A stretch of DNA of 63,632 nt, counting the filler, from Nemertoderma westbladi (taxonomy: Eukaryota > Animalia > Xenacoelomorpha): NCBI GenBank assembly GCA_032718475.1. It is 3 parts of 3 records of this genome, joined end to end, with 100 filler letters (N's around TTAATTAATTAA, not from the genome) between each part and the next. Parts side by side here need not be neighbours in the genome. Positions count along the whole stretch, not along the records: positions 1 to 29,238 come from JAUCBJ010003616.1; 2 more parts are not named here. One strand, written 5' to 3'. The notes under the pieces are model-generated. The model searched no databases and was not told where the DNA came from. It saw only the letters and a list, made by a program, of their open reading frames with translations. Each line of letters starts with the position of its first letter. Positions within the stretch are counted from its first letter, which is position 1. The position numbers and the translations under genes are program-made. Positions 1,173 through 34,155 of this stretch are shown here, one piece after another.

Positions 1173-1334
1173 ACCCGTCTATGTTGTTTACGAATATGCC
1201 AAACGGGAACCTTCAACAGCTGTTGGTTCGTTCTAGAAACTTAGTTTCGATACGGATAATCCAATCACAGCCCTGCAACTACTCTCTTTCGCTCACCAAA
1301 TATCCAAAGGATGGCTTACATAAGTTCTCTACAG
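1173..1334 (+). CDS. Receptor tyrosine kinase exon (subdomains V-VIa), frameshifted as assembled
   Basis: tttttAG acceptor 1171-72, GTGTGT donor 1335. Pieces in different frames read PVYVVYEYA / NGNLQQLLVRSR / ITALQLLSFAHQISKG / MAYISSLQ, joining in phase 0 to IVHRDL at 7253. About four small deletions are needed to restore the frame. Confidence 0.75.
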
Positions 1335-6382: not shown

Positions 6383-7252
6383 TATAATAGACATTCGACA
6401 GGAAATCGAATTTTATCTTATCAGTAAAGGTAATGGCACACAGGTGTCTAATCTGTTACTGAGGTTCTTAGCGCGACGTTATACAATAGATAGACCAGAG
6501 GGGAAGGAGCCATTGGGTGCTGCATCATTGTACAGCAACCATTAGGTTTCTCCATTAGATAGAACCACCAAATATTTCGATAAGTTCCCTTAAGGGGACA
6601 TTGATTACCCCCATAGGAAGTGCAATTTTCGAAAATTTACTTTTTTTTAATTTTATAGAAGGGCTTTCATGTGGTGACACTGGTTTTCATCATTGAATGT
6701 TTTTTTGACCACAAAACAGTACTTTTCAACAACAATGGCCGTTTTTCATGACTCTCTGTATAAAACTTCATTATTTAAACTAATTTTGAATAAAACCGAC
6801 CTGCACAAAACGTGTATATAATTACAAAATATTTTTCGAACAAACAGATTTGCGAAGCTACCCATACCCAGTTTAATGTAATAAAAGATCACATATTATT
6901 ATGTTAAAGTTTCTAAATAGTAGCTTTATAAAAAAATATATTTGTGGTAGTAGTCCACTTTATTTATAAATATCATTGAGGCGGAATATTAACTATCCGA
7001 GAAAGAGTTTGCGTCATATTACTCCTCCATAATTCTCTCCATAACTTTCTCTATAATAATACATTGGAATTGTCAATGCTTCGAATCTCCGGCTCCGACC
7101 GGAGCTCATATTGTAACCCGGAGAAACCTCTGGGCTCCGGCTCCGGGTGAAATTTTGTTGCATCCCTATAGTGTGTAGTGTAGTAAGGGGGGCTGCCAGT
7201 TATCCCTCAGACACCTTTTTGGACCAACCATTAACCATTCCTCCCCCCGCAG

Positions 7253-7499
7253 ATTGTCCATCGAGATTTGGCAGCTCGCAACGTTCTCATTGCGGCTGAC
7301 AACCAGTCCTGCTGTATCAGCGACTTCGGTATGGCCAAGCATGTGTCTGCAGCGGGTGGCTCGGTTCGCTACGAGAAGCGACGTAAGGGTCGCAGACCGG
7401 TCCGCTGGTTGGCTGTAGAGAGTCTATTCGACGGTGTTTGTTCAATAAAGTCAGACGTCTGGAGTTACGCAGTGCTGCTCTGGGAGATTGTTACTCTGG
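7253..7499 (+). CDS. Receptor tyrosine kinase exon (subdomains VIb-IX), RET/FGFR-like
   Basis: ccccccgcAG acceptor; IVHRDLAARNVL, SDFGMA, RPVRWLAVESLFD, SDVWSYAVLLWEIVTLG; phase-1 GTTAGT donor at 7500. Confidence 0.95.
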
Positions 7500-7760
7500 G
7501 TTAGTAATTAGTTTGTTTCTCTTAAATTTTTCATATTATTTATTTTTAGACCAACTTGTCGAATTTTTTATAACTTTGTTAATGGAATAATGGAATGAGA
7601 CTTAGCAACTAACCAATATTAGGTAAAAATACTTACCTGTCCGTATAGGCTATAAGTAATAGCGCTATCATCTTAAATGCGATAGAGGTCCTCTATCTTT
7701 GTGTTCAGCCATTTCACAAAGCTGTTGCGCGGTGTATGGACACGTCATTCTCCATATGAT

Positions 7761-10700
7761 TTCACCCAGGTTCCCTCCCCTATATCTCCCAGGTTCCCTC
7801 CCCTATATCTCCCAGGTTCCCTCCCGTATATCTCCCAGGTTCCCTCCCCTATATATCCCAGGTTCCCTCCCCTATATCTCCCAGGTTCCCTCCCCTATAT
7901 CTCCCAGGTTCCCTCCCCTATATCTCCCAGGTTCCCTCCCCTATATCTCCCAGGTTCCCTCCCCTATATCTCCCAGGTTCCCTCCCCTATATCTCCCAGG
8001 TTCCCTCCCCTATATCTCCCAGGTTCCCTCCCCTATATCTCACAGGTTCCCTCCCCTATATCTCCCAGGTTCCCTCCCCTATATCTCCCAGGTTCCCTCC
8101 CCTATATCTCCCAGGTTCCCTCCCCTATATCTCCCAGGTTCCCTCCCCTATATCTCCCAGGTTCCCTCCCCTATATCACCCAGGTTCCCTCCCCTATATC
8201 TCCCAGGTTCCCTCCACTATATCTCCCAGGTTCCCTCCCTTATATCCCCCAGGTTCCCTCCACTATATCTCCCAGGTTCCCTCCCCTATATCACCCAGGT
8301 TCCCTCCCCTATATCCCCCAGGTTCCCTCCCCTATATCCCCCAGGTTCCCTCCACTATATCTCACAGGATCCCTCCCCTATTTCTCCCAGGTTCCCTCCC
8401 CTATATCACCCAGGTTCCCTCCCCTATATCCCCCAGGTTCCCTCCCCTATATCTCCCAGGTTCCCTCAGCTATATCTCCCAGGTTCCCTCCCCTATATCT
8501 CCCAGGTTCCCTCCCCTATATCTCCCAGGTTCCCTCCCCTATATCTCCCAGGTTCCCTCCCCTATATCTCCCAGGTTCCCTCCTCTATATCACCCAGGTT
8601 CCCTCCCCTATATCCCCCAGGTTCCCTCCCCTATATCTCCCAGGTTCCCTCCCCTATATCTCCCAGGTTCCCTCCCCTATATCTCCCAGGTTCCCTCCCC
8701 TATATCTCCCAGGTTCCCTCCCCTATATTCCCAGGTTCCCTCCCCTATATCTCCCAGGTTCCCTCCTCTATATCACCCAGGTTCCCTCCCCTATATCCCC
8801 CAGGTTCCCTGCCCTATATCTCCCAGGTTCCCTCCCCTATATCTCCCAGGTTCCCTCCCCTATATCTCCCCTATATCTCCCAGGTTCCCTCCCCTATATC
8901 TCCCCTATATCTCCCAGGTTCCCTCCCCTATATCTCCCAGGTTCCCTCCCCTATATCTCCCCTATATCTCCCAGGTTCCCTCCCCTATATCTCCCAGGTT
9001 CCCTCCCCTATATCTCCCAGGTTCCCTCCCCTATAACTCCCAGGTTCCCTCCCCTATATCTCCCAGGTTCCCTCCCCTATATCTCCCAGGTTCCCTCCCC
9101 TATATCTCCCAGGTTCCCTCCACTATATCTCACAGGTTCCCTCCCTTATATCTCCCAGGTTCCCTCCCCTATATCTCCCAGGTTCCCTCCCCTATATCTC
9201 CCAGGTTCCCTCCCCTATATCTCCCAGGTTCCCTCCCCTATATCTCCCAGGTTCCCTCCCCTATATCTCCCAGGTTCCCTCCCCTATATCTCCCAGGTTC
9301 CCTCCCCTATATCTCCCAGGTTCCCTCCCCTATATCTCCCAGGTTCCCTCCCCTATATCTCCCAGGTTCCCTCCCCTATATCTCCCAGGTTCCCTCCCCT
9401 ATATCTCCCAGGTTCCCTCCCCTATATCTCCCAGGTTCCCTCCCCTATATCTCCCAGGTTCCCTCCCCTATATCTCCCAGGTTCCCTCCCCTATATCTCC
9501 CAGGTTCCCTCCCTTATATCTCCCAGGTTCCCTCCCCTATATCTCCCAGGTTCCCTCCCGTATATCTCCCAGGTTCCCTCCCCTATATCTCCCAGGTTCC
9601 CTCCCCTATATCTCCCAGGTTCCCTCCCCTATATCTCCCAGGTTCCCTCCCCTATATCTCCCAGGTTCCCTCCCCTATATCTCCCAGGTTCCCTCCCCTA
9701 TATCTCCCAGGTTCCCTCCCCTATATCTCCCAGGTTCCCTCCCCTATATCTCCCAGGTTCCCTCCCCTATATCTCCCAGGTTCCCTCCCCTATATCTCCC
9801 AGGTTCCCTCCCCTATATCCCCCAGGTTCCCTCCAATATATCACCCAGGTTCCCTCATATCCCCCAGGTTCCCTCCACTATATCTCACAGGTTCCCTCCC
9901 CTATATCTCACAGGTTCCCTCCCCTATATCCCCCAGGTTCCCTCCACTATATCTCACAGGTTCCATCCCCTATATCCCCCAGGTTCCCTCCACTATATCT
10001 CACAGGTTCCCTCCCCTATATCTCCCAGGTTTCCTCCCCTATATCACCCAGGTTCCCTCCCCTATATCCCCCAGGTTCCCTCCCCTATATCCCCCAGGTT
10101 CCCTCCACTATATCTCACAGGTTCCCTCCCCTATATCCCCCAGGTTCCCTCCACTATATCTCACAGGTTCCCTCCCCTATATCTCCCAGGTTCCCTCCCT
10201 TATATCCCCCAGGTTCCCTCCCCTATATCCCCCAGGTTCCCTCCACTATATCTCACAGGTTCCCTCCCCTATATCCCCCAGGTTCCCTCCCCTATATCTC
10301 ACAGGTTCCCTCCCCTATATCCCCCAGGTTCCCTCCACTATATCTCACAGGTTCCCTCCCCTATATCCCCCAGGTTCCCTCCCCTATATCTCACAGGTTC
10401 CCTCCCCTATATCCCCCAGGTTCCCTCCACTATATCTCACAGGTTCCCTCCCCTATATCTCCCAGGTTTCCTCCCCTATATCACCCAGGTTCCCTCCCCT
10501 ATATCCCCCAGGTTCCCTCCCCTATATCCCCCAGGTTCCCTCCACTATATCTCACAGGTTCCCTCCCCTATATCCCCCAGGTTCCCTCCACTATATCTCA
10601 CAGGTTCCCTCCCCTATATCTCCCAGGTTCCCTCCCCTATATCCCCCAGGTTCCCTCCCCTATATCCCCCAGGTTCCCTCCACTATATCTCACAGGTTCC

Positions 10701-13700
10701 CTCCCCTATATCCCCCAGGTTCCCTCCCCTATATCTCACAGGTTCCCTCCCCTATATCCCCCAGGTTCCCTCCACTATATCTCACAGGTTCCCTCCCCTA
10801 TATCTCCCAGGTTCCCTCCCTTATATCCCCCAGGTTCCCTCCCCTATATCCCCCAGGTTCCCTCCACTATATCTCACAGGTTCCCTCCCCTATATCCCCC
10901 AGGTTCCCTCCCCTATATCTCACAGGTTCCCTCCCCTATATCCCCCAGGTTCCCTCCACTATATCTCACAGGTTCCCTCCCCTATATCTCCCAGGTTCCC
11001 TCCCCTATATCACCCAGGTTCCCTCCCCTATATCCCCCAGGTTCCCTCTTCTATATCTCCCAGGTTCCCTCCCCTATATCTCCCAGGTTCCCTCCCCTAT
11101 ATCTCCCAGGTTCCCTCCCCTATATCTCCCAGGTTCCCTCCCCTATATCCCCCAGGTTCCCTCCCCTATATCTCCCAGGTTCCCTCCCCTATATCCCCCA
11201 GGTTCCCTCCACTATATCTCACAGGTTCCCTCCCCTATATCTCCCAGGTTCCCTCCCTTATATCACCCAGGTTCCCTCCCCTATATCCCCCAGGTTCCCT
11301 CCCCTATATCTCCCAGGTTCCCTCCCCTATATCTCCCAGGTTCCCTCCCCTATATCTCCCAGGTTCCCTCCCCTATATCTCCCAGGTTCCCTCCCCTATA
11401 TCTCCCAGGTTCCCTCCCCTATATCTCCCAGGTTCCCTCCCCTATATTTCCCAGGTTCCCTCCCCTATATCTCCCAGGTTCCCTCCCCTATATCTCCCAG
11501 GTTCCCTCCCCTATATCTCCCAGGTTCCCTCCCCTATATCCCCCAGGTTCCCTCCACTATATCTCACAGGTTCCCTCCCCTATATCTCCCAGGTTCCCTC
11601 CCCTATATCACCCAGGTTCCCTCCCCTATATCCCCCAGGTTCCCTCCCCTATATCTCCCAGGTTCCCTCCCCTATATCTCCCAGGTTCCCTCCCCTATAT
11701 CTCCCAGGTTCCCTCCCCTATATCTCCCAGGTTCCCTCCCCTATATCTCCCAGGTTCCCTCCCCTATATCTCCCAGGTTCCCTCCCCTATATCTCCCAGG
11801 TTCCCTCCCCTATATCTCCCAGGTTCCCTCCCGTATATCTCCCAGGTTCCCTCCCCTATATCTCCCAGGTTCCCTCCCCTATATCTCCCAGGTTCCCTCC
11901 CCTATATCCCCCAGGTTCCCTCCCCTATATCTCCCAGGTTCCCTCCCCTATATCTCCCAGGTTCCCTCCCCTATATCTCCCAGGTTCCCTCCCCTATATC
12001 TCCCAGGTTCCCTCCCCTATATCTCCCAGGTTCCCTCCCCTATATCCCCCAGGTTCCCTCACCTATATCCCCCAGGTTCCCTCCCCTATATCTCCCAGGT
12101 TCCCTCTCTTATATCTCCCAGGTTCCCTCCCCTATATCTCCCAGGTTCCCTCCCCTATATCTCCCAGGTTCCCTCCCCTGTATCTCCCCTATATCTCCCA
12201 GGTTCCCTCCCCTATATCTCCCAGGTTCCCTCCCCTATATTTCCCAGGTTCCCTCCCCTATATCTCCCAGGTTCCCTCCCCTATATCTCACAGGTTCCCT
12301 CCCCTAAATCTCCCATGTTCCCTCCCCTATATCTCCCAGGTTCCCTCCCCTGTATCTCACAGGTTCCCTCCCCTATATCTCCCAGGTTCCCTCCCCTATA
12401 TCTCCCCTATATCTCACAGGTTCCACCCTCTATATCTCCCAGGTTCCCTCCCCTATATCTCCCAGGTTCCCTCCCCTATATCTCCCAGGTTCCCTCCCCT
12501 ATATCTCACAGGTTCCCTCCCCTAAATCTCCCAGGTTCCTTCCCCTATATCTCCCAGGTTCCCTCCCCTATATCACCCAGGTTCCCTCCCGTATATCTCC
12601 CAGGTTCCCTCCCCTATATCCCCCAGGTTCCCTCCCGTATATCTCCCAGGTTCCCTCAGCTATATCTCCCAGGTTCCCTCCCCTATATCCCCCAGGTTCC
12701 CTGCCCTATATCTCCCAGGTTCCCTCCCCTATATCTCCCAGGTTCCCTCCCCTATATCTCCCAGGTTCCCTCCCCTATATCTCCCAGGTTCCCTCCCCTA
12801 TATCCCCCAGGTTCCCTCCCGTATATCTCCCAGGTTCCCTCAGCTATATCTCCCAGGTTCCCTCCCCTATATCTCCCAGGTTCCCTCCCCTATATCTCCC
12901 AGGTTCCCTCCCCTATATCTCCCAGGTTCCCTCCCCTATATCTCCCAGGTTCCCTCCCCTATATCTCCCAGGTTCCCTCCCCTATATCTCCCAGGTTCCC
13001 TCAGCTATATCTCCCAGGTTCCCTCCCCTATATCTCCCAGGTTCCCTCCCCTATATCTCCCAGGATCCCTCCCCTATATCTCCCAGGTTCCCTCCCCTAT
13101 ATCTCCCAGGTTCCCTCCCCTATATCTCCCAGGTTCCCTCCCCTATATCCCCCAGGTTCCCTCCCGTATATCTCCCAGGTTCCCTCCCCTATATCTCCCC
13201 TATATCTCCCAGGTTCCCTCCCCTATATCTCCCAGGTTCCCTCCCCTATATCTCCCAGGTTCCCTCCCCTATATCCCCCAGGTTCCCTCCCGTATATCTC
13301 CCAGGTTCCCTCAGCTATATCTCCCAGGTTCCCTCCCCTATATCTCCCAGGTTCCCTCCCCTATATCTCCCAGGTTCCCTCCCCTATATCTCCCAGGTTC
13401 CCTCCCCTATATCTCCCAGGTTCCCTCCCCTATATCTCCCAGGTTCCCTCCCCTATATCTCCCAGGTTCCCTCAGCTATATCTCCCAGGTTCCCTCCCCT
13501 ATATCTCCCAGGTTCCCTCCCCTACATCTCCCAGGTTCCCTCCCCTATATCTCCCAGGTTCCCTCCCTTATATCCCCCAGGTTCCCTCCCCTATATCCCC
13601 CAGGTTCCCTCCACTATATCTCACAGGTTCCCTCCCCTATATCCCCCAGGTTCCCTCCCCTATATCTCACAGGTTCCCTCCCCTATATCACCCAGGTTCC

Positions 13701-16388
13701 CTCCCCTATATCCCCCAGGTTCCCTCCCTTATATCCCCCAGGTTCCCTCCAATATATCACCCAGGTTCCCTCATATCCCCCAGATTCCCTCCACTATATC
13801 TCACAGGTTCCCTCCCCTATATCCCCCAGGTTCCCTCCCCTATATCCCCCAGGTTCTCTCCACTATATCTCACAGGTTCCCTCCCCTATATCTCCCAGGT
13901 TCCCTCCCCTATATCACCCAGGTTCCCTCCCCTATATCCCCCAGGTTCCCTCCCCCATATCCCCCAGGTTCCCTCCACTATATCTCCCAGGTTCCCTCCC
14001 CTATATCCACCAGGTTCCCTCACCTATATCCCCCAGGTTCCCTCCCCTATATCTCCCAGGTTCCCTCTCTTATATCTCCCAGGTTCCCTCCCCTATATCA
14101 CCCAGGTTCCCTCCCCTATATCCCCCAGGTTCCCTCCCCTATATCTCCCAGGTTCCCTCCCCTATATCTCCCAGGTTCCCTCCCCTATATCTCCCAGGTT
14201 CCCTCCCCTATATCTCCCAGGTTCCCTCCCCTATATCCCCCAGGTTCCCTCCCCTATATCCCCCAGGTTCACTCCCCTATATCTCCCAGGTTCCCTCCCC
14301 TATATCCCCCAGGTTCCCTCCCCTATATCTCACAGGTTCCCTCCCCTATATCCCCCAGGTTCCCTCCACTATATCTCACAGGTTCCCTCCCCTATATCTC
14401 CCAGGTTCCCTCCCCTATATCTCCCAGGTTCCCTCCCCTATATCTCCCAGGTTCCCTCCCCTATATCTCCCAGGTTCCCTCCCCTATATCTCCCAGGTTC
14501 CCTCCCCTATATCTCCCAGGTTCCCTCCCCTATATCTCCCAGGTTCCCTCCCCTATATCTCCCAGGTTCCCTCCCCTATATCTCCCAGGTTCCCTCCCCT
14601 ATATCTCCCAGGTTCCCTCCCCTATATCTCCCAGGTTCCCTCCCCTATATCACCCAGGTTCCCTCCCCTATATCCCCCAGGTTCCCTCCCCTATATCTCC
14701 CAGGTTCCCTCCCCTATATCTCCCAGGTTCCCTCCCCTATATCTCCCAGGTTCCCTCCCCTATATCTCCCAGGTTCCCTCCCCTATATCTCCCAGGTTCC
14801 CTCCCCTATATCTCCCAGGTTCCCTCCCCTATATCTCCCAGGTTCCCTCCCCTATATCTCCCAGGTTCCCTCCCCTATATCTCCCAGGTTCCCTCCCCTA
14901 TATCTCCCAGGTTCCCTCCCCTATATCCCCCAGGTTCCCTCCACTATATCTCACAGGTTCCCTCCCCTATATCTCCCAGGTTCCCTCCCCTATATCTCCC
15001 AGGTTCCCTCCCCTATATCTCCCAGGTTCCCTCCCCTATATCTCCCAGGTTCCCTCCCCTATATCTCCCAGGTTCCCTCCCCTATATCTCCCAGGTTCCC
15101 TCCCGTATATCTCCCAGGTTCCCTCCCCTATATCTCCCAGGTTCCCTCCCCTATATCTCCCAGGTTCCCTCTCTTATATCTCCCAGGTTCCCTCCCCTAT
15201 ATCTCCCAGGTTCCCTCCCATATATCTCCCAGGTTCCCTCCCCTGTATCTCCCCTATATCTCCCAGGTTCCCTCCCCTATATCTCCCAGGTTCCCTCCCC
15301 TATATTTCCCAGGTTCCCTCCCCTATATCTCCCACGTTCCCTCCCCTATATCTCACAGGTTCCCTCCCCTAAATCTCCCATGTTCCCTCCCCTATATCTC
15401 CCAGGTTCCCTCCCCTGTATCTCACAGGTTCCCTCCCCTATATCTCCCAGGTTCCCTCCCCTATATCTCCCCTATATCTCACAGGTTCCACCCTCTATAT
15501 CTCCCAGGTTCCCTCCCCTATATCTCCCAGGTTCCCTCCCCTATATCTCCCAGGTTCCCTCCCCTATATCTCCCAGGTTCCCTCCCCTATATCTCACAGG
15601 TTCCCTCCCCTAAATCTCCCAGGTTCCCTCCCCTATATCTCCCAGGTTCCCTCCCCTATATCACCCAGGTTCCCTCCCGTATATCTCCCAGGTTCCCTCC
15701 CCTATATCCCCCAGGTTCCCTCCCGTATATCTCCCAGGTTCCCTCAGCTATATCTCCCAGGTTCCCTCCCCTATATCCCCCAGGTTCCCTGCCCTATATC
15801 TCCCAGGTTCCCTCCCCTATATCTCCCAGGTTCCCTCCCCTATATCACCCAGGTTCCCTCCCGTATATCTCCCAGGTTCCCTCCCCTATATCCCCCAGGT
15901 TCCCTCCCGTATATCTCCCAGGTTCCCTCCCCTATATCTCCCAGGTTCCCTCCCCTATATCTCCCCTATATCTCCCAGGTTCCCTCCCCTATATCTCCCA
16001 GGTTCCCTCCCCTATATCTCCCAGGTTCCCTCCCCTATATCCCCCAGGTTCCCTCCCGTATATCTCCCAGGTTCCCTCAGCTATATCTCCCAGGTTCCCT
16101 CCCCTATATCTCCCAGGTTCCCTCCCCTATATCTCCCAGGTTCCCTCCCCTATATCTCCCAGGTTCCCTCCCCTATATCTCCCAGGTTCCCTCCCCTATA
16201 TCTCCCAGGTTCCCTCCCCTATATCTCCCAGGTTCCCTCCCCTATATCTCCCAGGTTCCCTCAGCTATATCTCCCAGGTTCCCTCCCCTATATCTCCCAG
16301 GTTCCCTCCCCTATATCTCCCAGGTTCCCTCCCCTATATCTCCCAGGTTCCCTCCCCTATATCTCCCAGGTTCCCTCCCCTATATCTC
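7761..16388 (+). repeat. 23-bp satellite ATCTCCCAGGTTCCCTCCCCTAT, left part (about 375 units)
   Basis: Continuous tandem array with point variants; unit equals the kinase intron acceptor plus first 14 exon bases. Confidence 0.98.
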
Positions 16389-19300
16389 TATAAAAGCTAT
16401 GATATCCGAATAAAATCAGTTTCTTAGTTCAATAGAATTAAACCGAAAGCCTGACTCTAACATAATAATTAGGGTACCGGTATGTTCCTATAACAGTATA
16501 TTTATATCTGTCACAATAATTAGGGTACCGGTATGTTCCTATAACAGTATGTTTATATATGTCCCTTAGGGTACCGGTATGTTCCTATAACAGTATGTTT
16601 ATATCTGTCACAATAGCCTTCTCCTAGTCTATGTCCCCTTCCTTCTTCCGTGCTGTGGACCAGCTTTACTCGGGTCGAACCAGTTTGGTTTCTTTCTGGT
16701 CCTCTCCTGTCGGCCAAACACCATCTCCTGGGGCTCCGCTCGAACTGGTGCCTCTGACTCCCCGTGACCCCCTGATCCTGTCCCCGGTTCTGGACTTGGC
16801 TGATCTGCTATCTTTAAATCTAGGTAATCCTCCTCATCCGAACTGACTCCACCCTCCTGTTCATGCCGATTTGGGAATCGATTCAGGTGCGCTGGTCTGC
16901 TGCGTAATAGTTTACACTTAGCCTTGTTTCTCACCCGAGTCTTCCCCCCTCTCTGAGCTGTCACCTGGGTACCTTTAACCCCTGTTACTGTGTAGGGTTC
17001 TGGGTCGAATGGTGGTTTTATCGTGGTTTTTCCCTGTTTGATCAGTATCTTATCTCCGGGGGTGATTGTCACATCCTTGGCCCGTTTCTTTTTGTCTCGT
17101 AGCTCCTTCCTCACTGCTCTAGTTTCTTGGTCCCTCGATCTTGCTTCCTGATGTGCTTTTCCCTGAGGTGGGTTGATTAGTGTTGGTATCCGTGTCCTTA
17201 TTGTGCGGCCCATTATCAACTCACTCGGTGTCTTCCCAGTGCTGGGGTGGGGGGTGTTTCGGTAATTTAACATCCTCCTCCTCACTTCGACCTTTGGATT
17301 CTTCCCTTCCGCGATGGCTGCGTGCACTGTTTTAACGAGAACTCCCATAAATCTTTCAGCTATCCCATTAGCTTCGGGATGTTCGGGTGTGCAGGGTTTA
17401 GATTTAAATCCCATTTCTTGTGCGTATTCTTTCCAAGCAGTGGATTGGTATGGACTACCATTGTCGTGAGTTATAGATTCAGGTACGCCCATCAAACTGA
17501 AACTCCTGTCCAGTGCGGGCCTAAGCTTGTCGAAACTTGTGCTGGATACGATCTCCACTTCTGGCCACCGAGAGTATGTGTCTATTAGAACGTGGAAGTA
17601 ATATTTACCCGCTATTGGTCCTTTAAAATCCGCCGCGCAGTCGACCCACGGGCCAGATGGGGTTGGCCTTTCTATCATTGGCGGGGGACTGTTCCTTCCC
17701 ACAGAGGCTGCGCAGGCTGAGCAACTCTCCACATATGCCTTGACATCCTCTGTGAGGCCTGGCCACCACACCGATTCTCTAAGTTGCCGTAACATTGAGT
17801 CTCTACCTGGGTGCCCCTCATGAGCTGCCCCTAGAACGTCTGGCCTGAGCTTCCTGGGAATGAGGAGCCTTTCGCCCCGCAACAGTATTCCTCCCTTCGA
17901 ACTGAGCTCTAGGAAGCATTCCTTATATCCCACCGTACGTAGTTCATCCCGCAGTTTTCCCCTTTGGATGTCTACCATTAGTTGCTGTAACTCCTCGTCC
18001 TTCTGTGTAAACTGTTGTAGAATTGGAAGTGTTACCGCATCAGTCACCGCTTCTATTCGATTGACTATAATTTCCGCTTCATCTTCATCCTCCTCAATGC
18101 CAAGCTGCGCTCTGTCCTCCACACGGTAGTGCTTCATGGGTGGGGGATTCCTAGATCCGTAATCAGCTGGGGTTGTGGTGCCTGGTTCGTACACCACGTC
18201 GAAGTCGAACCCGCTTAATTTCGCTTTATGCTTGGCTATCCTGATTGGTAATGATTTTGAGTGTGAACGGTATATAGAGACTAGTGGCTCATGATCCACT
18301 ACGACCGTAAATTTGGTGCCATATAGATACATCCGATTTGCTAATACCCCACTCAGTATTCCCAAAGACTCGCCATCTACTTTGCCATAGTTCATCTCGG
18401 CGCTTGTCTTGGCTCTGCTGTTATGTGTCACCGGCCTCCAGACATTATGATCCATACCCGGGAGCATATACTTCTGAGCAACTGTTGCTGCCACTCCAGC
18501 CGGCCCCTCATCTACATAGAGCCTAGTTTCCCGGTTTGGATCAAAGTTAGCCAACACCTGGTCTGACGTGAGAAGTCCCTTCAGCTCCTGGAAACTCTCC
18601 TCGCACTCGACAGTCCAATGAAATTTAACCTTCTTGGCTGTAAGACACCGGAGCGGTTTAGTGACATCTGAGTATGTTCTCCCGACTCCTCGATCCTTGT
18701 CTTGCTGTGGGCGCATAAAAACCTGACAAAACTGTACTGTTTGTAGGAATGACTTCACCCCTGCTTTGTCTTTAGGTCGCGGCCATGCTCTTATATCCTC
18801 TACCTTGGCTGGATCTGCCGACATGCCCTGCTTGGAGTAGATATTTCCAAACCATTTAACCTGTGGCATTCCGAACTGACATTTTTCCTTCCTCAACGTC
18901 AGCCCATATTCTCCTAATCTCCGAAGTAACGCCTCCAAGCGTTCATCGTGAATCTCCCCTACACCGTGTACCACAATGTCATCCTTGATCTGCTGTATTC
19001 CTTCCAGGCCTTCCACTATTAGCCGGATCCTCTCGTGGCACTCGCTACTGGCGCTGGAGACGCCCATAACTAGTGTATTATATCTATACAGGCCCCAAGG
19101 TGTGTAGAATACAAACAGGTCTTTGGACTCATTGTCCATTTCGAACTGGTGAAACGCATGATTGAGGTCCACTATGGAAAATCTATCCGAACCAAGAAAG
19201 TTGTGCCGCAGCTCTTTTGGGGTTGGAATGGGGAAATGGGAAGTCTTTACAGCCGCTGCCATGGGACGGGTATCTAAATTAACCCGAATCTTCTTATCGC

Positions 19301-21268
19301 TCCAGCTCTTGTGGGTAATCACCATGTTACTAATCCAGCCTCTGGCTGAGCTGGAGGGCAGTGGCCCTGAAATTACTCCTTCCCTCTTCAATTCTTCCAG
19401 ATGTTCCCGAAAGAGTTCCTTGTATTGGAGCGCGATGGGCCTCTGCTTCTGTTGGACTGGGCGGATGCTCTTGTCCACCTCTATATGGACCGGTTCCACA
19501 TTGGCTCGGCCCAGCCCTTGGAACAACTCCTCGTGGCCCTTTAGAATCTCCCGGATTTTGCGGTCTATCTCAGCCTGGGTCCGTCCCCCAGACACCATTT
19601 CTTCTGTTGTAACAGGCTGTTTCAATTCCGTGTTCAGCTGCCCTACACCTTCCACTTTGGCGTTACCATCCGGGTTGATAGAGATAATACCCAGCAACTC
19701 GCTGTCTTTCAGCCCCAGCAGAGACTGCGTCTCCCCGGCAACCACGTACACTATAGTATGTATCTGGGCTCCACACGCTGCTGTCAACTGGCACTTGGTT
19801 CGTCCTATAATAGGAAGTTTCAACTTCGTACCGAACGGCGATAATTTTGTGTAGTTCTTCTTCAGTTTAATCCTGGATTCGCCTGTTTTGGTTTTTACCT
19901 TCGCCCAATCTGCCTCGCTAAGCAGAGTTTTATTGACCCCGCTGTCTATGAGGAGTTCCACTGTTGCCCGCTCCGAGGCTCTACCATGGTCCAACGCTAC
20001 CAGCCCGACCACCGCCCGTTGGCTGCCGCCTCCCTTTACCGCCCGGACACTCTCAGCCGGCTGCTCGGCGACCAACCCAACCGATTCGCTGTCGGTATCG
20101 CTCCCACACTCCTCGTCCAGCGCCAGAGTTCGCTCCCTCCGCGGTTTAACCTTCCGCTCCCCGGTGCAGGCTGTGGAATTCTTAAAATGACCCCACTTCC
20201 CACAAGCGAAACATTCAACCCTCTTCCCGGGACAACGTCCTTCCTCGTGTGTGGGGCGGGTGCAGGTGCGACAGGTGTACTCCTTGGATCTCCCACCGCT
20301 CGGTTTACCGGACCTTCCGGGATCCGCACGCAGCTGCCGGACCTGGTCCTCCAGCGCCGCTACTCGGGTATCTTCCCTCCTCGAGGCGTTCCCCCGGATC
20401 TCATCCACCTTCCGGGCTCCCTGTTCGAGCGCTAAACCGAACTTAATCGTGTCGTCGAAACTCAAGTCCTCCGCGATCACCTTCCGCTGGAGCTTCTTGT
20501 CGCCAGTTTGGTACAATATCGCGTCTCGCGCCGCCGCCCTCGCCCCGTATCCGGCCCAAACACACCGATCAGCTTGCTCCTTTACTTTGGGGAACCATTG
20601 CGCGAAATGCTGTCCTCCCTGGGGCATCTGCTGAAAGAGCTTAAACCGCGCGGTCGCCTGGTTCGTCTGCCGCTTTATACCCTCCTCCACCTTGGCTACC
20701 GCCGCCTCGAATGTGTCCTCCTGGTCGACGCCGCCCACGTGGTCGAGAAGATTCTTCATCTCGTCACCGCCGACCAACCGAAGCGTCGCCTTGGCCTTCT
20801 TACAGCCCGGGCAATCGGCTCCATGTCCCTCATCGTGGACTCCGTCAGCCTCCGTCGCGGTGAGAAACTACTGGAAATTCGAGATGTACTTTGTGTAGTC
20901 CTGGAACAATTGCTCCGGGTCGCCTGGGTTCTTTATCACAAAAGGGGCGGGTTTGAGCATCAACATCATCTCCGCCATCGTATCCAAGTCAGGCTTTATC
21001 AGAATATCAATATTATATTGGGTTCTATTCACGACTCGTCGCCATATAAAAGCTATGATATCCGAATAAAATCAGTTTCTTAGTTCAATAGAATTAAACC
21101 GAAAGCCTGACTCTAACATAATAATTAGGGTACCGGTATGTTCCTATAACAGTATATTTATATCTGTCACAATAATTAGGGTACCGGTATGTTCCTATAA
21201 CAGTATGTTTATATATGTCCCTTAGGGTACCGGTATGTTCCTATAACAGTATGTTTATATCTGTCACA
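16389..21268 (-). mobile_element. Full-length Ty3/Gypsy LTR retrotransposon (Mag-like)
   Basis: 224-bp LTRs 16389-16612 and 21045-21268, identical by eye; ATCTC target duplication; PBS TGGCGACGAG at 21044-21035; purine tract AGGAGAAGG beside the 3' LTR. Confidence 0.97.
16629..20978 (-). CDS. Gypsy Gag-Pol polyprotein (one in-frame TAG near the N-terminus)
   Basis: ATG 20978 in frame with ORF 16629-20777, TAG at 20868-70. Double zinc knuckle (CRTC..H..C, CFACGKWGH), protease LIDSGV, RT (VDLNHAFHQF, QIKDDIVV), RNase H (VDHEPL, ADYGSR), integrase (HEGHPG..CSAC, DFKG, DNG, ERF). Confidence 0.93.
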
Positions 21269-23037
21269 ATCTCCCAGGTTCCCTCCCCTATATCCCCCAG
21301 GTTCCCTCCCGTATATCTCCCAGGTTCCCTCCCCTATATCTCCCCTATATCTCCCAGGTTCCCTCCCCTATATCTCCCAGGTTCCCTCCCCTATATCTCC
21401 CAGGTTCCCTCCCCTATATCCCCCAGGTTCCCTCCCGTATATCTCCCAGGTTCCCTCAGCTATATCTCCCAGGTTCCCTCCCCTATATCTCCCAGGTTCC
21501 CTCCCCTATATCTCCCAGGTTCCCTCCCCTATATCTCCCAGGTTCCCTCCCCTATATCTCCCAGGTTCCCTCCCCTATATCCCCCAGGTTCCCTCCCGTA
21601 TATCTCCCAGGTTCCCTCCCCTATATCTCCCAGGTTCCCTCCCCTATATCTCCCCTATATCTCCCAGGTTCCCTCCCCTATATCTCCCAGGTTCCCTCCC
21701 CTATATCTCCCAGGTTCCCTCCCCTATATCCCCCAGGTTCCCTCCCGTATATCTCCCAGGTTCCCTCAGCTATATCTCCCAGGTTCCCTCCCCTATATCT
21801 CCCAGGTTCCCTCCCCTATATCTCCCAGGTTCCCTCCCCTATATCTCCCAGGTTCCCTCCCCTATATCTCCCAGGTTCCCTCCCCTATATCTCCCAGGTT
21901 CCCTCCCCTATATCTCCCAGGTTCCCTCCCCTATATCTCCCAGGTTCCCTCCCCTATATCTCCCAGGTTCCCTCCCCTATATCTCCCAGGTTCCCTCCCC
22001 TATATCACCCAGGTTCCCTCCCGTATATCTCCCAGGTTCCCTCCCCTATATCTCCCAGGTTCCCTCCCCTATATCTCCCAGGTTCCCTCCCCTATATCAC
22101 CCAGGTTCCCTCCCCTATATCTCCCAGGTTCCCTCCCCTATATCACCCAGGTTCCCTCCCGTATATCTCCCAGGTTCCCTCCCCTATATCTCCCCTATAT
22201 CTCCCAGGTTCCCTCCCCTATATCTCCCCTATATCTCCCAGGTTCCCTCCCCTATATCTCCCAGGTTCCCTCCCCTATATCTCCCAGGTTCCCTCCCCTA
22301 TATCTCCCAGGTTCCCTCCCCTATATCTCCCAGGTTCCCTCCCCTATATCTCCCAGGTTCCCTCCCCTATATCTCCCAGGTTCCCTCCCCTATATCACCC
22401 AGGTTCCCTCCCGTATATCTCCCAGGTTCCCTCCCCTATATCTCCCAGGTTCCCTCCCCTATATCTCCCAGGTTCCCTCCCCTATATCACCCAGGTTCCC
22501 TCCCCTATATCTCCCAGGTTCCCTCCCCTATATCACCCAGGTTCCCTCCCGTATATCTCCCAGGTTCCCTCCCCTATATCTCCCCTATATCTCCCAGGTT
22601 CCCTCCCCTATATCTCCCCTATATCTCCCAGGTTCCCTCCCCTATATCTCCCAGGTCCCCTCCCCTATATCTCCCCTATATCTCCCAGGTTCCCTCCCCT
22701 ATATTTCCCAGGTTCCCTCCCCTATATCTCCCAGGTTCCCTCCCCTATATCTCTCAGGTTCCCTCCCCTATATCTCCCAGGTTACCTCCCCTATATCTCA
22801 CAGGTTTCCTCCCCTATATCTCCCAGGTTCCCTCCCCGTATATCTCCCAGGTTCCCTCCCCTATATCTCCCAGGTTCCCTCCCCTATATCTCCCAGGTTC
22901 CCTCCCCTATATCCCCCAGGTTCCCTCCCCGTATATCTCCCAGGTTCCCTCCCCTAAATCTCCCAGGTTCCCTCCCCTATATCTCCCAGGTTCCCTCCCC
23001 TATATCTCCCCTATATCTCACAGGTTCCCTCCCCTAT
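21269..23037 (+). repeat. 23-bp satellite, right part (about 77 units), last unit runs into the kinase exon
   Basis: Same unit resumes after the Gypsy element; final copy is cacAG|GTTCCCTCCCCTAT-CCAAAG. Confidence 0.98.
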
Positions 23038-23220
23038 CCAAAGCTCTCTGCCGAGGAGGTTATGCTTCGTCTGAACGAGGGATACCGAATGGAACGTCCG
23101 TCCCACGTTTACAGTGAGTTTTACGATCTATTGCGATGGTGTTGGCACGAGGACCCTCAAGTTAGACCCAACTTCGATACAATCAGCTCTCGTATGGAAA
23201 ACCTTATATGTAAACCCGAG
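23024..23220 (+). CDS. Receptor tyrosine kinase exon (subdomains X-XI)
   Basis: Phase-1 join G|GT gives TLG-SLPYPKLSAEEVMLRLNEGYRMERPSH...CWHEDPQVRPNF; acceptor ctcacAG 23022-23, GTAATC donor 23221. Confidence 0.93.
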
Positions 23221-24559: not shown

Positions 24560-25875
24560 CATGTGTGTGGGGCGAGCCACGAAGTTGGCGGAGCCTTAGC
24601 GAATTGACACTGTTAGGGGGTGGGTCAATTTATGCAAATAGTTGTCGTCGTCGTCGTCGTCGTTGTCGTCATCGTCGTCGTCGTCGTTGTCGTCGTCGTC
24701 GTTACGATTTTGACATGCTAATAACTTTGTCGGATTTAAAGCTGCCAAGTTGAAAATTTGTAGGTATCAATATGAGCAAAAGTTGAGATTTTTGAGAGAC
24801 TTTCAGACACCATCAGTGCAATGGTCTCCCGCTAGAGGGCCACATGTCTAAACATTAAATGCCCTCCCATTTCTTTGCTTTTAATCCGTTTAAGCTGAAA
24901 CTTGGCAGATATGTATTAGACCATTAGCTGTGACTTTCAAAGGAGGCGAATCCATCTGCAGTTCTCCAGTCTGCCGCTAGAGGGCCAAAGGTCTGAAAGT
25001 GAAATCGTTGTCGTCGTTACGATTTTGACATGCTAATAACTTTGACGGATTTAAAGCTGCCAAGTTGAAAATTTCTAGGTATCAATATGAGCTAAAGTTG
25101 AGATTTTTGAGAGACTTTCAGACACCATCAGTGCAATGGTCTCCCGCTAGAGGGCCACATGTCTAAACATTAAATGCCCTCCCATTTCTTTGCTTTTAAT
25201 CCGTTTAAGCTGAAACTTGGCAGATATGTATTAGACCATTAGCTGTGACTTTCAAAGGAGGCGAATCCATCTGCAGTTCTCCAGTCTGCCGCTAGAGGGC
25301 CAAATGTCTGAAAGTGAAATCGTTGTCGTCGTTATGATATTGACATGCTTATAACTTTGTCGAATTTAAAGCTGCCAAGTTGAAAATTTGTTTTGTTGAA
25401 AATCAGTTCAACAGTCACCCGCTATAGGACTACTTTATGCCTGAAAGTGAATAGATTCTCCCGTCTCATTGATTTTAATCAGTTTAAGCTGAATCTTGCC
25501 ATATATTCTGGACCACATGCTGCGTCTTTGTGGGGGGGGGGGGGGGGGGGGGGAGATTTAATCGGTCTGCCGCTATACGACAAAATTTCTGAAAGTGAGA
25601 TCCGTCTCTCATTTCGTTATCCGTTATTCAAGATGAAACTTGGCCGATGTACGTATGTACTATTCATCCATAGGCTGTGTCTTTGTGGGGCTGGAGACCC
25701 TAATCCATCTTCAGTTCTCATTATACCGCTAGAGTCAGAAATGTCTGAATAGAAATGAAAGAGGTAAAAAGTGATTAGGCGAAATCTGCTTAAAATTTGC
25801 TAATACAGTAATACTTTCGAATTAGTACTTAAATTAAATTTAAGTCACGTGCTGCGCGAAGGCCCCACTTCGTGT
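24560..25875. mobile_element. Helentron/DINE-1-like non-autonomous element with (TCG)n tract and 315-bp internal tandem repeats
   Basis: CACGAAGT near 24578 inverted to ACTTCGTG near 25870; TCG microsatellite 24645-24702; repeat starts at 24701, 25016, 25331. Confidence 0.6.
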
Positions 25876-27274: not shown

Positions 27275-27553
27275 GAGGGGAGCAGTTAGAGGTGGGAGGG
27301 AAAAAAATAGAGGTGCAAGGGGAGCAGTTAGAGGTGTGAGGGGAAAAGGTAGAGGTGCAAGGGGAGCAGTTGGAGGTGCGAGGGAAAAAGGTAGATGTGC
27401 AAGGGGAGCAGTTGGAGGTGCGAGGGGAAAAGGTAGAGGTGCAAGTGGAGCAGTTGGAGGTGCGAGGGGAAAAGGTAGATGTGGAAGGGGAGCAGTTGGA
27501 GGAGCGAGAGGAGTAGTTAGTGCGAGAGCAGTGGGTAGAGGTGCGAGAGGAGA
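27275..27553. repeat. 42-bp purine-rich minisatellite (GGGGAGCAGTTGGAGGTGCGAGGGGAAAAGGTAGAGGTGCAA)
   Basis: About 6 degenerate tandem units. Confidence 0.85.
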
Positions 27554-28840
27554 ATGGGAGGATCTGTGGAGGGTGTGGGAGTCAGGGTGAAAAGTACAGG
27601 AGGATCTGTGGAGGGTGTGGGAGACAGGGTGAAAAGTACAGGAGGATCTGTGGAGGGTGTGGGAGACAGGGTGAAAAGTACAGGAGGATCTGTGGAGGGT
27701 GTGGGAGACAGGGTGAGAAGTACAGGAGGATATGTGGAGGGTGTGGGAGACAGGGTGAAAGGTACAGGAGGATCTGTGGAGGGTGTGGGAGACGGAGTGG
27801 GAAGTACAGGAGGATCTGTGGCGGGTGTGGGAGACGGAGTGGGAAGTACAGGATGATCTGTGGAGGGTGTGGGAGACGGAGTGGGAGCTATGGGAGGATC
27901 TGTGGAGGGTGTGGGAGACAAGGTGAGAAGTACAGGAGGATCTGTGGAGGGTGTGGGAGACAGGGTGAAAAGTATAGGAGGATCTGTGGAGGGTGTGGGA
28001 GACAGGGAGAAAGGTACAGGAGGATCTGTGGAGGGTGTGGGAGACGGAGTGGGAAGTACAGGAGGATCTGTGGCGGGTGTGGGAGACGGAGTGGGAAGTA
28101 CAGGATGATCTGTGGAGGGTGTGGGAGACGGAGTGGGAGCTATGGGAGGATCTGTGGAGGGTGTGGGAGACAAGGTGAGAAGTACAGGAGGATCTGTGGA
28201 GGGTGTGGGAGACAGGGTGAGAAGTACAGGAGGATCTGTGGAGGGTGTGGGAGACAGGGTGAGAAGTACAGGAGGATCTGTGGAGGGTGTGGGGGGGGGG
28301 GGCAGGGTGAGAAGTACAGGAGGATCTGTGGAGGGTGTGGGAGACAGGGTGAGAAGTACAGGAGGATCTGTGGAGCGTGTGGGAGACAGGGTGAGAAGTA
28401 CAGGAGGATCTGTGGAGGGTGTGGGAGACGGAGTGGGAAGTACAGGAGGATCTGTGGAGGGTGTGGGAGACAGGGTGAGAAGTACAGGAGGATCTGTGGA
28501 GGGTGTGGGAGACAGGGTGAGAAGTACAGGAGGATCTGTGGAGGGTGTGGGAGACAGGGTGAGAAGTACAGGAGGATCTGTGGAGGGTGTGGGAGACAGG
28601 GTGAGAAGTACAGGAGGATCTGTGGAGGGTGTGGGAACGGGTGAAGTACAGGAGGATCTGTGGAGGGTGTGGGAGACAGGGTGAGAAGTACAGGAGATCT
28701 GTGGAGGGTGTGGGAGACAGGGTGAGAAGTACAGGAAGATCTGTGGAGGGTGTGGGAGACAGGGTGGAAGTACAGGAGGATCTGATGGAGGGTGGGGAAG
28801 ATGGAGTGGGAAGGTACAGGTGGATCTGTGGAGGGTGGGG
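27554..28840. repeat. 42-bp minisatellite (AGGAGGATCTGTGGAGGGTGTGGGAGACAGGGTGAGAAGTAC, about 30 units)
   Basis: Tandem units seen directly; explains the repetitive ORFs on both strands. Confidence 0.95.
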
Positions 28841-29238
28841 ATGAAAGTGATGATGAACAATTTATAGGTTTTGACTAACTGCTCAGCCATAGTGATATAC
28901 AGTTATAAACTCGGTAATAAACTCGTCATACTTTGTGAATTTTCATATAAATCGTCACTAAAGTACCTAAAGTGGTTTTTAAACTGTTTTAATAAACTCT
29001 TTATGTTTATTTGATAAACTATAATATTTTATAATTTTTCCAGAAATGGGGACCATAAAGATTTCTTATGATTGATTATATTTTCAAATAAGCTTTATTG
29101 GGAGGTGTTACTGGGATCAGGAATGGCTGCATAGCTCCCACTCAGAGACGAAATCTGGGTTAATTTAACATTTCAGTGTAATTACAACTGGTGTTACATG
29201 GTGGGACAAATTGGTACAGGCATCGGAAATCACCATTC

Positions 29239-29338
29239 NNNNNNNNNNNNNNNNNNNNNNNNNNNNNNNNNNNNNNNNNNNNTTAATTAATTAANNNNNN
29301 NNNNNNNNNNNNNNNNNNNNNNNNNNNNNNNNNNNNNN
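29239..29338. other. Artificial contig linker
   Basis: N44-TTAATTAATTAA-N44, stop codons in six frames. Confidence 0.97.
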
Positions 29339-30405: not shown

Positions 30406-32732
30406 ATGAAAGCTCCTATTGAGCTCTCCAACTCTTATGGCGAACTGGACTACGAAACGAAATTAACTGCACAGCTGACACAGCAAAATGAGTTACTTCA
30501 ACGATTGCTGAAGGAAACAAAGAAGTCCACACAACATACAAAACAAGGACGATCATGAAGAGGTTGATATCAAAATAGTGCAGGTCTCGGGGCTACCTCC
30601 CAACTCCAGCAGTGTTTCTCTCTCCCAATATTGTTACAAACAGACTGGAATCAGACCGATTAATGTTTGGATAAAAGGCACTAGAGGACAAATAAAGCAA
30701 GCAAAAATAACTATCCCTGCCAACGCCCTCCATATCTATACAAACAGAACTATGTGGCCTGGCCCAAATGTGAAAGCAAGAGAATTTAAATCAGACTATC
30801 GAACGGGGCCGACTAACTTCTATAAAAAACCTGAACATAACACCTATACATTCACTCCCTTGACTCCTACATCAACGGCTCAACAAAACTATCGTGATAG
30901 ACCTAGAGAATACAGGCCTACTGGTAGAACAATCAATAGCAATAACCATTACAACCAAAATCAAGCCAACCGATGGGAGACACGCCAAAACCATTGGGAC
31001 AGAAATCAAGATAATACTAATCTGGAAAGACATCAAGGCTATTCCCATAGAGGGGCTTCCCCAAACCAATGGCATCACCCACGCTCTTACGCGTCAAACT
31101 ATTTTTAAGAATATAAAATACAAACAACTATACACAGGTCCTCAACAATCACCAATATTGAAACAACAAGAACTGATTAAGGGGAGAAGTAACACAATAC
31201 CTTCCAAAGAACAACAACTGGATGTAATATCACTAAACTGTAGGGGGTATCTACATAATAAACTCTATAAACAAGATTATTGATGAAAACTCCCCTCACG
31301 TACTTATTCTTCAAGAGTCCTGGTTAGGCCCCAGAGAAGCCGAATTCTATCTAAAGGATTCCAAACCTCACACTAACTATGATTGCATATATTCAACATC
31401 TCATATGCTAATAAATGGCAATAAGAGGCGAGGAGAAGGTGGAATGATAATATTTATCCATAAGGATTTACTTCCTTACTGCAACGAAATTGAGACAAAG
31501 TCAGATAGGATCATGGCGCTTCACATAAAGAATCACCCCTATATTGGGGATATGGGCATAGTGGGGCTGTACATGCCAGCAAACTGCAACAGATACGATG
31601 ACTCTTCAAAGTACTCCTATACCTGTGGAAAATTATTGGTACTAATACAGGAACTCATTGCCTCGGGATCAAAGGTATTAGTTGCGGGCGATATCAATGG
31701 TAGCCTAGGATCCAAAAACAAAAGTTGGCAAACCAAACTGACTCACTTTGGCAAAATTTTTAATGAAAATATTACGGACCAACTCAAAATGCATATATCA
31801 GACCTAGATGAATCTGCAACTGGACCACTCAAGACGTATCGTATGAAAAATAGAATCAGGGAAGAAATTAATTCATCTTACATTGATCACTGCCTAGTAA
31901 CTCAGGACCTTATTGATCAGACAAGCTCTTGCATGGTATTTGAAGAAGAACCGTGTAATCTGTCAGACCATGTCCCCGTTTCAATAGGATTTCACTTTAA
32001 TAGGTTACACTGTAGCTTACCTCCTATTCCAACAAAAAGGAGCAAGTTACCGATCTTCCACTTTGACAAAGCCACCTCAGAGCAACGAAACAAATACCGT
32101 AGCGAGATTGACAAAGTCCTCAGCGAATCCAATATATCAAATGGAAAATGTTCAACTGATCCCAAGGAAGCTACTGGTATCCTTGAAATCACCTCAAAGT
32201 GTATCCTCCAGGCGGCGAAAAGGCATATCCCAATTACATACAACAATAAATGCTCTAAAAAACCAAGAAATCCTTCCCAAACCCTGAAAAAAGATACTAC
32301 CACTACACCATCTACTACAGGATACCTAAAAGATGTCTATGATAAGGCAAGAGTAGCATGGATATCCAATGGCGAAATACACAATCCCAGCAATAAGCAT
32401 TTCATGGAATATAAACTGGCGAGCCATGCATATCATGATGCACTATCCAAAATAGACAGAAGCAAATACCTCCAACATATTTCAAATTTAGCGGACCAAT
32501 GTCGAGGTAATGACAAGCGTTTTTGGAGATCGGTGAAACAAAGAGGTAACCAATCTGAGGTAACTAACGCCACGGCAACAAGTTTGGTTGATCATTACAG
32601 CCAGCATTTCAAGTCAACATCTACAAACTCACCAGGAAATACTAAGGATCAATAATATGATGAAGAGTACGAACCAATCTTGACAATAGATGTAAACGCA
32701 CCCCTACTAGATTCCTGTAGCATCGAAGATGC
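30406..32732 (+). mobile_element. RTE-X-like LINE, 5' part (ORF1 remnant and APE endonuclease), degenerate
   Basis: ORF1-type WPGPNVKAREF; APE motifs SLNCRG, LILQESWL, GEGGMIIF, AGDING, IDHCLV, NLSDHVPV; frameshifts and a TAA at 32653. Confidence 0.88.
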
Positions 32733-34024
32733 TGTAAAAGCTTCTGTGGGATATAACTGGCCCTTTTGCTTCGCAATCCAGTTTCCCCCCAGGCGCTGGA
32801 ATACTCTAAAAGGCTCTCTAACTATATATATATTCCCCTCGCCCGCAAGGTACCGTTATAGGTGTTTTAACGGACATAAAAGTCATTCTTCTATATACGT
32901 GCTTTGGTGGACATGGTAAGGCAAAAAACCCGCAATGCACCAAATACCTTTACACAGCTTAGCCTTGATGATTCAGATTACGACATCTAACAGCTGGTTG
33001 CTGACATGGAAACGGCCATTGGACACATGGTTCTTTGTTTAGCTTAAGCCAATCAGAGCGATTTTTTCTGTCGATGTGGAGATATTCGGCCGATCATACT
33101 AGGAGTCTTACTGTTTTTGTGATACTGTTGTGTTCCTTCTATCTAGGCCAGGAACACCGGCTCTAGAGTCAATTCGTTTCAGACTTTAGAAGAAACATTA
33201 GTAGGCTTAAGATTATAGAGCGTATAACTGTTATCGGTCCAGTCAAACAGTGTTACCATCTTAACCTACCGTCTTAATGCTATTTACTGTTGTGTTTTGG
33301 TTGAATATTATTATTTGGAGAACATCTATAAAGAACCCAAATTTCCCAATTTTCTTGATACACTACAGGTTAGAGAGACAGGCTACATATAGCGATTGCG
33401 ACTTATATTATCGTGGTTTGTAGTGAGTTTAAGGCTATTTGATAAGCACTACATGAGTCCGTTGCTGTTCTCTTTATATATGATAAAATTCATTGACGGT
33501 CGGCAAATTAGTGAGAGCAGTATTGTGTGTTACCGGTAGTGTGCCTGATTGTGACTGATAACTAAGCATTTCCTAAAGAATGCGCCTCATACGTGAATCA
33601 TAAGCCTTACCGACTTACCGTTGTGATTAGTATAAGTCATATCTCTGTTTACCTAGATAGAGCGCCACGTCCTAAAGGAACTGTTAATATTTCCCGAAAG
33701 TGAATAATATTAGTCAGAAATTATTTATTAACGATCAATCGAATAATACAGTAAGCTTACACTGCAATAATAATCTAAGCCCTCAGAATCCAGTCTCCCG
33801 GGTATATCCAGCGGGTGAATGGACGCGCACTAGGCTGGCTTCTGCTAATGTTGTGTTTATTGGTATTAAATATTTGTCAACTTCTAAAGTCTATTTGTAA
33901 ACCAAAAGACATATAAATTTTGGCAGGTTAAACTGCTAAAGGTCTTCAAAAGCGCGTACAATAACAGTTATTGTCTTTATTGCAGTAAGCAATAAAGTTG
34001 AAAGTACCGGTCGACCGGTAAACC

Positions 34025-34155
34025 TGAACCGGTACTTCTGTAGGTCAGTAGGCCCAACTGCCAGAACCGGTACTGCTGTAGGTCCGTAGGTCCAACTGTC
34101 AGAACCGGTACTTCTGTAGGTCCGTAGGCCCAACTGTCCTAACCGGTACTTCCAG
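34025..34155 (+). repeat. About 38-bp tandem repeats in the BEL leader
   Basis: AACCGGTACTTCTGTAGGTCCGTAGGCCCAACTGTC about 3.5 times. Confidence 0.8.

Follow-up and report, generated by a model that had tools for sequence, protein, structure and literature searches.

The 63,632-nt stretch analyzed here (the window), from the genome assembly of the xenacoelomorph Nemertoderma westbladi (GCA_032718475.1), carries part of a gene that, on sequence grounds, is a receptor-tyrosine-kinase gene. Three of its exons are designated A, B, and C (Table 1). Between exons B and C lies an intron of 15,524 bp (7500–23023) in which a minisatellite repeats the intron's own 3′ splice junction and is split by a Ty3/Gypsy retrotransposon. 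Exons B and C abut on the Pfam PF07714 profile (positions 123–199 and 204–257) and are adjoining parts of a tyrosine-kinase domain. The best named matches of exon B, among the 120 listed of 2,800 in a protein search, were Cad96Ca, Ret, and FGFR-like kinases at 55–60% identity, and no close relative was found among those 120. A protein search with exon C returned one candidate, none at E ≤ 1e-8, and neither exon retrieved a near-identical protein that displays the spliced junction.

Table 1. Features of the kinase gene and of its B–C intron, in positions of the window
Feature	Position	Strand	Description	Basis
Kinase exon A (subdomains IV–VIa)	1173–1334	+	Frame broken in the assembly by three small indels, with a stop	Three-frame translation
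Kinase exon B (HRDLAARN ... DFG ... WEIVTL-G)	7253–7499	+	Phase-1 donor TGG|GTTAGT	PF07714, E=2.4e-27
Unique 5′ part of the intron	7500–7769	+	270 bp; ends in the original acceptor, AG at 7768–7769	Sequence
Left arm of the junction minisatellite	7770–16388	+	8,619 bp; 365 CAG|GT sites	
Internal higher-order duplication	12122–15806	+	597-bp block at 12122, found again at 15187 with a length of 620 bp	
Ty3/Gypsy long terminal repeat (LTR) retrotransposon	16389–21268	-	4,880 bp; inserted inside one unit; young, intact	
Right arm of the junction minisatellite	21269–23023	+	1,755 bp; 73 CAG|GT sites including the last	
Terminal unit, 34-bp variant	22990–23023	+	A at -22 and at -20; nearest earlier AG at -36	
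Kinase exon C (G-SLPYP ... CW ... RP)	23024–23220	+	197 bp; donor GAG|GTAATC	PF07714, E=5.2e-12

The consensus unit of the array is GTTCCCTCCCCTATATCTCCCAG, mostly 23 bp long, and consists of the first 14 bases of exon C together with 9 bases that resemble the end of the intron. The array was parsed into 445 units, of which 418 are 23 bp, 17 are 34 bp, and 10 have other lengths; it spans 10,369 bp, the insert and one target copy not counted. Intact CAG|GT sites number 438, the first and the last included. The first acceptor is preceded by unique intron (...gatttcacccag|G at 7770), and the last one starts exon C at 23024. An earlier sequence-only reading had described about 450 tandem AG|GT sites in a satellite of about 10 kb, built of 9 intron and 14 exon bases from the gene's own 3′ splice junction, and both the counts and the composition and coordinates of the unit agree with that description. 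The 14-mer of exon bases occurs 336 times in the 63.6-kb window, always within the array and always on the + strand (0/336 elsewhere), so the repeat of the junction is not due to chance. Derivation of the unit from the kinase gene's own acceptor, followed by amplification in place, is supported. An open frame of 2,913 codons that runs through the left arm was considered as a gene and rejected, because the consensus unit lacks a stop triplet on the + strand and few variants add one.

The direction of copying can be read from the protein. The 14 exon bases code for G-S-L-P-Y, a conserved kinase motif, with the splice junction falling within L-G|x-x-P-Y. The pattern W-E-x3-x-G-x-x-P-(Y/F/W) was present in 107 of the 120 homologues, with one fixed spacing in all 107, and none of these 107 has an insertion at the point of the junction. 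The PY-to-CW spacing, 34 residues in exon C, is the same in 102 of 104 homologues. Since the motif keeps its spacing across homologues, it was the exon that gave rise to the unit and not the other way round, and a normal kinase domain is expected from the last AG only. The sequence-only reading had made the same point about the coding content of the unit and the last AG.

The same reading had treated the array as continuous. Its extent was given correctly, but the array is interrupted by the Ty3/Gypsy element, which was absent from that description. All features tested for such an insert were found: identical LTRs of 224 bp each (16389–16612 and 21045–21268), a primer-binding site, a polypurine tract, a 5-bp target duplication (ATCTC), and an open frame of 1,412 codons with reverse transcriptase (RT), RNase H, and integrase domains in that order. 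When the flanks are rejoined, they restore a perfect unit. The insertion is very young. A matching run of unit variants stands on both sides of it, from which it follows that the element entered an already existing array. The proposal that a 270-bp intron grew to 15.5 kb by amplifying its own acceptor thus stands in part: the unique portion, the present length, and the amplified acceptor are as claimed, but the retrotransposon supplies one third of the growth. On their own strand the LTRs end in TG...TA, the usual LTR ends being TG...CA, and they include about three repeats of a 51-bp unit.

Within the array, 48 unit types were distinguished, several of which are amplified variants. The two blocks of the internal duplication, about 3 kb apart, differ by three mismatches and one extra unit and have seven rare unit variants in common. 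This spread of variants together with the block duplication is ordinary minisatellite turnover and would be hard to obtain from mis-assembly. The amplification itself may have proceeded by slippage or unequal exchange. Conservation of AG|GT was assessed in 418 units, and the bias of the matching pattern, if it has one, is toward too few changes at AG|GT. Substitution types at AG|GT numbered 4 of 12 possible, versus 27 of 57 at the other positions (Fisher p = 0.53, a comparison that rests on one array and has low power). Variant counts per position were 0–3 at AG|GT, near the median of 3 for other positions. AG|GT is thus not detectably protected within the array.

The unit spans a host exon–intron boundary, its copies keep the splice signal, and minisatellite turnover goes on inside the array. 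It is a very large acceptor-side case of a class that is already known, the mirage minisatellites. In the portions of the literature drawn on here and below, mirages are tandem exon–intron boundary copies in amphioxus genes, namely the globins BflGb6 (acceptor type) and BflGb9, Adh3, troponin C, and PGBD5 (PMC3087553, PMC3902484). BflGb6 has the same geometry as the kinase array: an intron's 3′ end is copied together with an exon's 5′ part, the AG/GT signals are kept, and turnover within the array is concerted. The scale differs, with 3–6 units of 150–160 bp in BflGb6 and 2–7 units in PGBD5, against about 445 units of 23 bp and a nested Gypsy element here. Splicing of BflGb6 is described as regular, and the silence of its copies was shown by reverse-transcription PCR (PMC3087553, PMC3902484), whereas for the kinase array we only infer silence. 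The host is itself not close to a lancelet (best named matches of its kinase 55–60%, among the matches listed).

Junction-spanning repeats are also reported from human genes, and variable repeats at exon–intron boundaries have been surveyed in human duplicated genes (PMC2812944). The nearest in size is the variable-number tandem repeat (VNTR) in intron 18 of ABCA7, whose 25-bp unit includes the gene's own splice site and whose largest allele is given as 10,678 bp, or about 427 units (PMC5954066). It includes the donor of exon 18, whereas the kinase array is on the acceptor side, and length polymorphism and length-dependent exon skipping have been shown for ABCA7 (PMC5954066). In CBS 844ins68 the end of an intron and the start of an exon are duplicated (52 + 16 bases), splicing goes to the distal site, and a normal mRNA results (PMC2630376, PMC7490669); unlike the kinase array, it has two copies only. 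The 37-bp VNTR of F7 intron 7 likewise spans a junction, and its pseudo-sites are described as functional and normally silent. It lies on the donor side, where the first site wins by oriented scanning, while the kinase array needs the last acceptor (PMC1557585). The kinase array shares with the Rogers model of AGGT intron gain the tandem duplication of a segment containing AG|GT (PMC3265369), but here an intron already present became longer at its 3′ end. Its donor, TGG|GTTAGT at 7500, lies in unique sequence away from the array and no further intron arose, so the model, which had been invoked in the sequence-only reading, does not apply.

How the intron is removed is a matter of acceptor choice. 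The sequence itself shows that this junction-spanning ("mirage") minisatellite arose from 9 bases at the intron's end and 14 at the exon's start, that it was amplified in place to about 445 copies with duplication of internal blocks, and that the Gypsy element later split an array already present. For its removal we favor as probable a single splicing step, which would take out the whole intron from the donor at 7499 to the last AG. The last acceptor may win because only it defines an exon of normal size (197 nt) with a good downstream donor. The 34-bp terminal unit could help by placing A residues at branch distance within a longer AG-free tract: in the standard unit an AG stands at -25 and there is no A between -12 and -24, whereas the terminal unit has the arrangement given in Table 1. 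Units of 34 bp make up 8 of 72 in the right arm, compared with the 17 of 445 overall. The AG|GT copies upstream would for the most part be carried along in silence, and the occasional use of one close by would yield products with a shifted frame or a disrupted kinase. The branch motif yUnAy in its canonical form was present at -18 to -40 before 56 of 441 acceptor-like sites; these include neither the first nor the last, so the motif offers no explanation of site choice. The report that the more distal of the two duplicated CBS sites is strongly favored (PMC2630376) counts for removal to the last AG.

Evidence for expression comes from contigs assembled from sequencing runs of the species. Among the runs listed as containing this sequence none is recorded as RNA, a blank that weighs neither for nor against expression. 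One contig of 2,741 nt, from run X3, covers only exon A (1174–1334) of a 1,251-bp stretch and reaches 1,668 nt 3′ of that exon. X3 holds a fraction of 0.41 of the words of 7200–7760, which is what exon B by itself would contribute (217 of the 531 31-mers in that interval). A 31-mer graph contig could not pass a long 23-bp tandem, and the 3′ extension of the X3 contig therefore points to an array-free transcript. The species thus appears to make such a transcript and to express the gene; one or two extra variant units would be compatible with these data.

A number of observations weigh against one-step removal to the last AG. X3 is listed as "DNA?" and is judged RNA-like from its exon-only cover; that its contig contains exon B and continues about 1,400 nt past the donor is also something we infer, and the transcript speaks for the species and not for an established carrier of the array. 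No read or contig crossing the 7499–23024 junction was seen among the contigs of this species' runs. The 5′-most acceptor keeps its native upstream intron and could be favored by simple scanning. The terminal 34-mer is a single observation and no more than a hint of selection. Counted by copies, AG|GT variants are rarer, with 6 in 4 positions versus 260 in 19, most of the 260 coming from five amplified positions. Long junction VNTRs can disturb splicing, as reported for ABCA7 (PMC5954066). Lastly, exon A as assembled has three indels and a stop. The sequence-only reading had called the flanking exons intact; exons B and C are without lesion, but the next exon upstream is frameshifted, and intact flanking exons alone are therefore no proof that the allele works.

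This last point bears on an alternative in which the array haplotype is a dead allele or copy, a pseudogene in which the array and the Gypsy element grew unchecked and needed no splicing solution. Contigs from the X2, X3, and X4 runs, which represent two samples, differ from exon A of the window by +2 bases at 1193, -2 at 1241, and +1 at 1308; no substitutions are listed for the exon, and its frame is open in all three runs. Run X1, possibly the source of the assembly, shows no cover at 1168–1377, a gap that was given no weight. Two of the three indels are contractions, one of a dinucleotide run and one of a homopolymer run. Such differences, indels only and clustered within 115 bp, two of them run contractions, in a window built of short joined contigs, look like a patch of long-read errors and suggest that the frameshift stems from a consensus error at this spot. 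Nearby sequence (1455–2093) is identical to that of another sample, and the sound state of exons B and C also speaks against a pseudogene. On the other side, the assembly looks accurate elsewhere, so the indels of exon A exceed its general error rate: despite 1,257 homopolymer runs, the 445 units include only one of 22 bp and two of 24 bp, and the Gypsy element has a 4.2-kb open frame and identical LTRs. The same intron also harbors a very young retrotransposon. Because the array and the Gypsy element are nearly free of indel errors, a dead allele keeps some probability, though a low one. Errors of assembly could also bear on the array itself, which might be real but much shorter and inflated by mis-assembly. 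The assembly is fragmented, exon A holds a probable error patch, and no independent read spanning the array was seen; against this, the unit variants are non-identical and fall in structured patterns, the duplicated block's copies are set apart by 3 substitutions and one unit, and the Gypsy target duplication is clean and rejoins to a perfect unit. We consider such inflation barely credible.

Two further alternatives differ from one-step removal in what the copies do. In one, modeled on ABCA7, the array would be mostly skipped and would lower or divert output in proportion to its length, through skipping of exon C, use of acceptors 34–80 nt upstream, and decay of frameshifted products. In ABCA7, with a 25-bp unit that includes the donor and alleles up to 10,678 bp, exon skipping is reported to rise with length and single-unit retention to occur (PMC5954066). 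In the right arm, 26 of 73 acceptors, the last included, are in frame with the last, and three upstream in-frame acceptors, when translated, add 19–50 proline-rich residues without a stop. No such insertion is found in any of the 107 motif-bearing homologues of the 120, and we regard a length-dependent modifier as improbable. The other alternative is recursive removal, in which the donor at 7499 splices to a unit, AG|GT regenerates a donor, and splicing steps on through the array. Every unit does juxtapose a pyrimidine tract and AG|GT, as ratchet points do (PMC8605326, PMC8184009), and does so inside a long intron; moreover, the cryptic exon needed for recursion could be defined by the CAG|GTTCCC that every unit carries (PMC8605326). 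The donor regenerated after any ratchet step, TGG|GTTCCCTC, is letter for letter the mature mRNA junction, identical through +14, so that a ratchet working efficiently would splice the completed mRNA once more. It is also weak. Its predicted U1 duplex is -3.8 kcal/mol, versus -5.6 for CAG|GTTCCCTC, the donor within each unit, and a range of -6.7 to -9.3 over the three real donors of the gene; it matches the donor consensus at 3 of 11 positions, the unit's own at 5 of 11; and among 338 ordinary intronic GTs, 25% equal or exceed it in pairing with U1. These scores, we stress, are proxies from U1 pairing and consensus, using generally known motifs, and not the output of a trained splice model. 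Since the regenerated donor never reaches the strength of the intact donor in the next unit, cassette inclusion is predicted in place of a zero-length ratchet (PMC8605326).

Published ratchet points bear on the recursive model in both directions. In the Drosophila work consulted, a weaker ratchet donor turns skipping into inclusion, although donor strength was not explanatory in every case; skipping in the tested fly alleles needed a regenerated donor stronger than the cryptic exon donor, whereas here the regenerated donor is weak and repeated hundreds of times (PMC8605326). The exon junction complex is reported to repress regenerated sites (PMC8184009), and a one-unit step of 23 nt is shorter than the minimal intron of about 60 nt (PMC3265369). 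Mirage arrays are reported silent without recursion (PMC3087553, PMC3902484), and AG|GT shows no selective retention (4/12 vs 27/57 types, p = 0.53). Weak-looking regenerated sites can be functional (PMC8184009), which makes recursion very unlikely rather than impossible. The tolerance of the array had been attributed in the sequence-only reading to recursive removal, each unit acting as acceptor and regenerated donor; the weakness of that donor (-3.8 vs -5.6) and the lack of special conservation at AG|GT tell against this account. An extended form, equally doubtful and in our judgment highly improbable, would make the array a self-removing satellite: the 438 AG|GT sites would serve as a ratchet ladder climbed by at least three units per step, growth would come without cost, and the 34-bp terminal unit and the downstream donor would be a selected stop signal. 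Were recursion true, the repeat would be hidden from selection by its own splicing; a literature search for this combination listed a single paper, which by its title concerns the size of teleost introns.

Other repeats and elements lie in the window. A second 23-bp minisatellite, with 10 identical units (2298–2545), occupies the A–B intron; its sequence is unrelated and it has no visible link to a splice site. Downstream of exon C, a 315-bp tandem duplication (24690–25389, 2.2 copies) stands beside a GTC microsatellite, and purine-rich 21/42-bp and 42-bp arrays follow at 27275–28841, with units irregular toward the contig end. A donor-like GG|GTGAG is present in many of these 42-bp units, but no exon was identified next to them. 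Joins of separate contigs are marked at 29239–29338 and 57959–58058 by two identical spacers of 100 bp, each with a 12-base AT palindrome between two runs of 44 N, and sequence after 29338 therefore need not be linked to the kinase gene. A likely BEL/Pao-type LTR element (32656–44908) has a 1,554-codon frame with DUF1759 (35921–40582) and flanks with identical translations at about 32.7–33.9 kb and 43.7–44.9 kb. It is apparently nested between an endonuclease-like (31237–32652) and an RT-like (44951–46087) half of a long interspersed nuclear element, labels assigned by eye. At 51309–54056 a 609-codon RT-like frame (51688–53514, - strand), Penelope-like by eye, lies between repeats of about 330 bp in opposite orientation. 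An uninterrupted 348-codon short-chain dehydrogenase frame (PF00106, E=8e-47) at 60065–61108 is apparently intronless.

With respect to its class, the kinase array has more than 10 times the copies of the acceptor-side arrays in the literature compared (up to 7 units), and in size it matches the donor-side VNTR of ABCA7. It offers a natural test of 3′ splice-site choice, in which one site is to be chosen out of 438 that are near-identical: scanning predicts the first and exon definition the last. The locus also probes the effect of a small change in the terminal unit, 34 bp in place of 23 bp.

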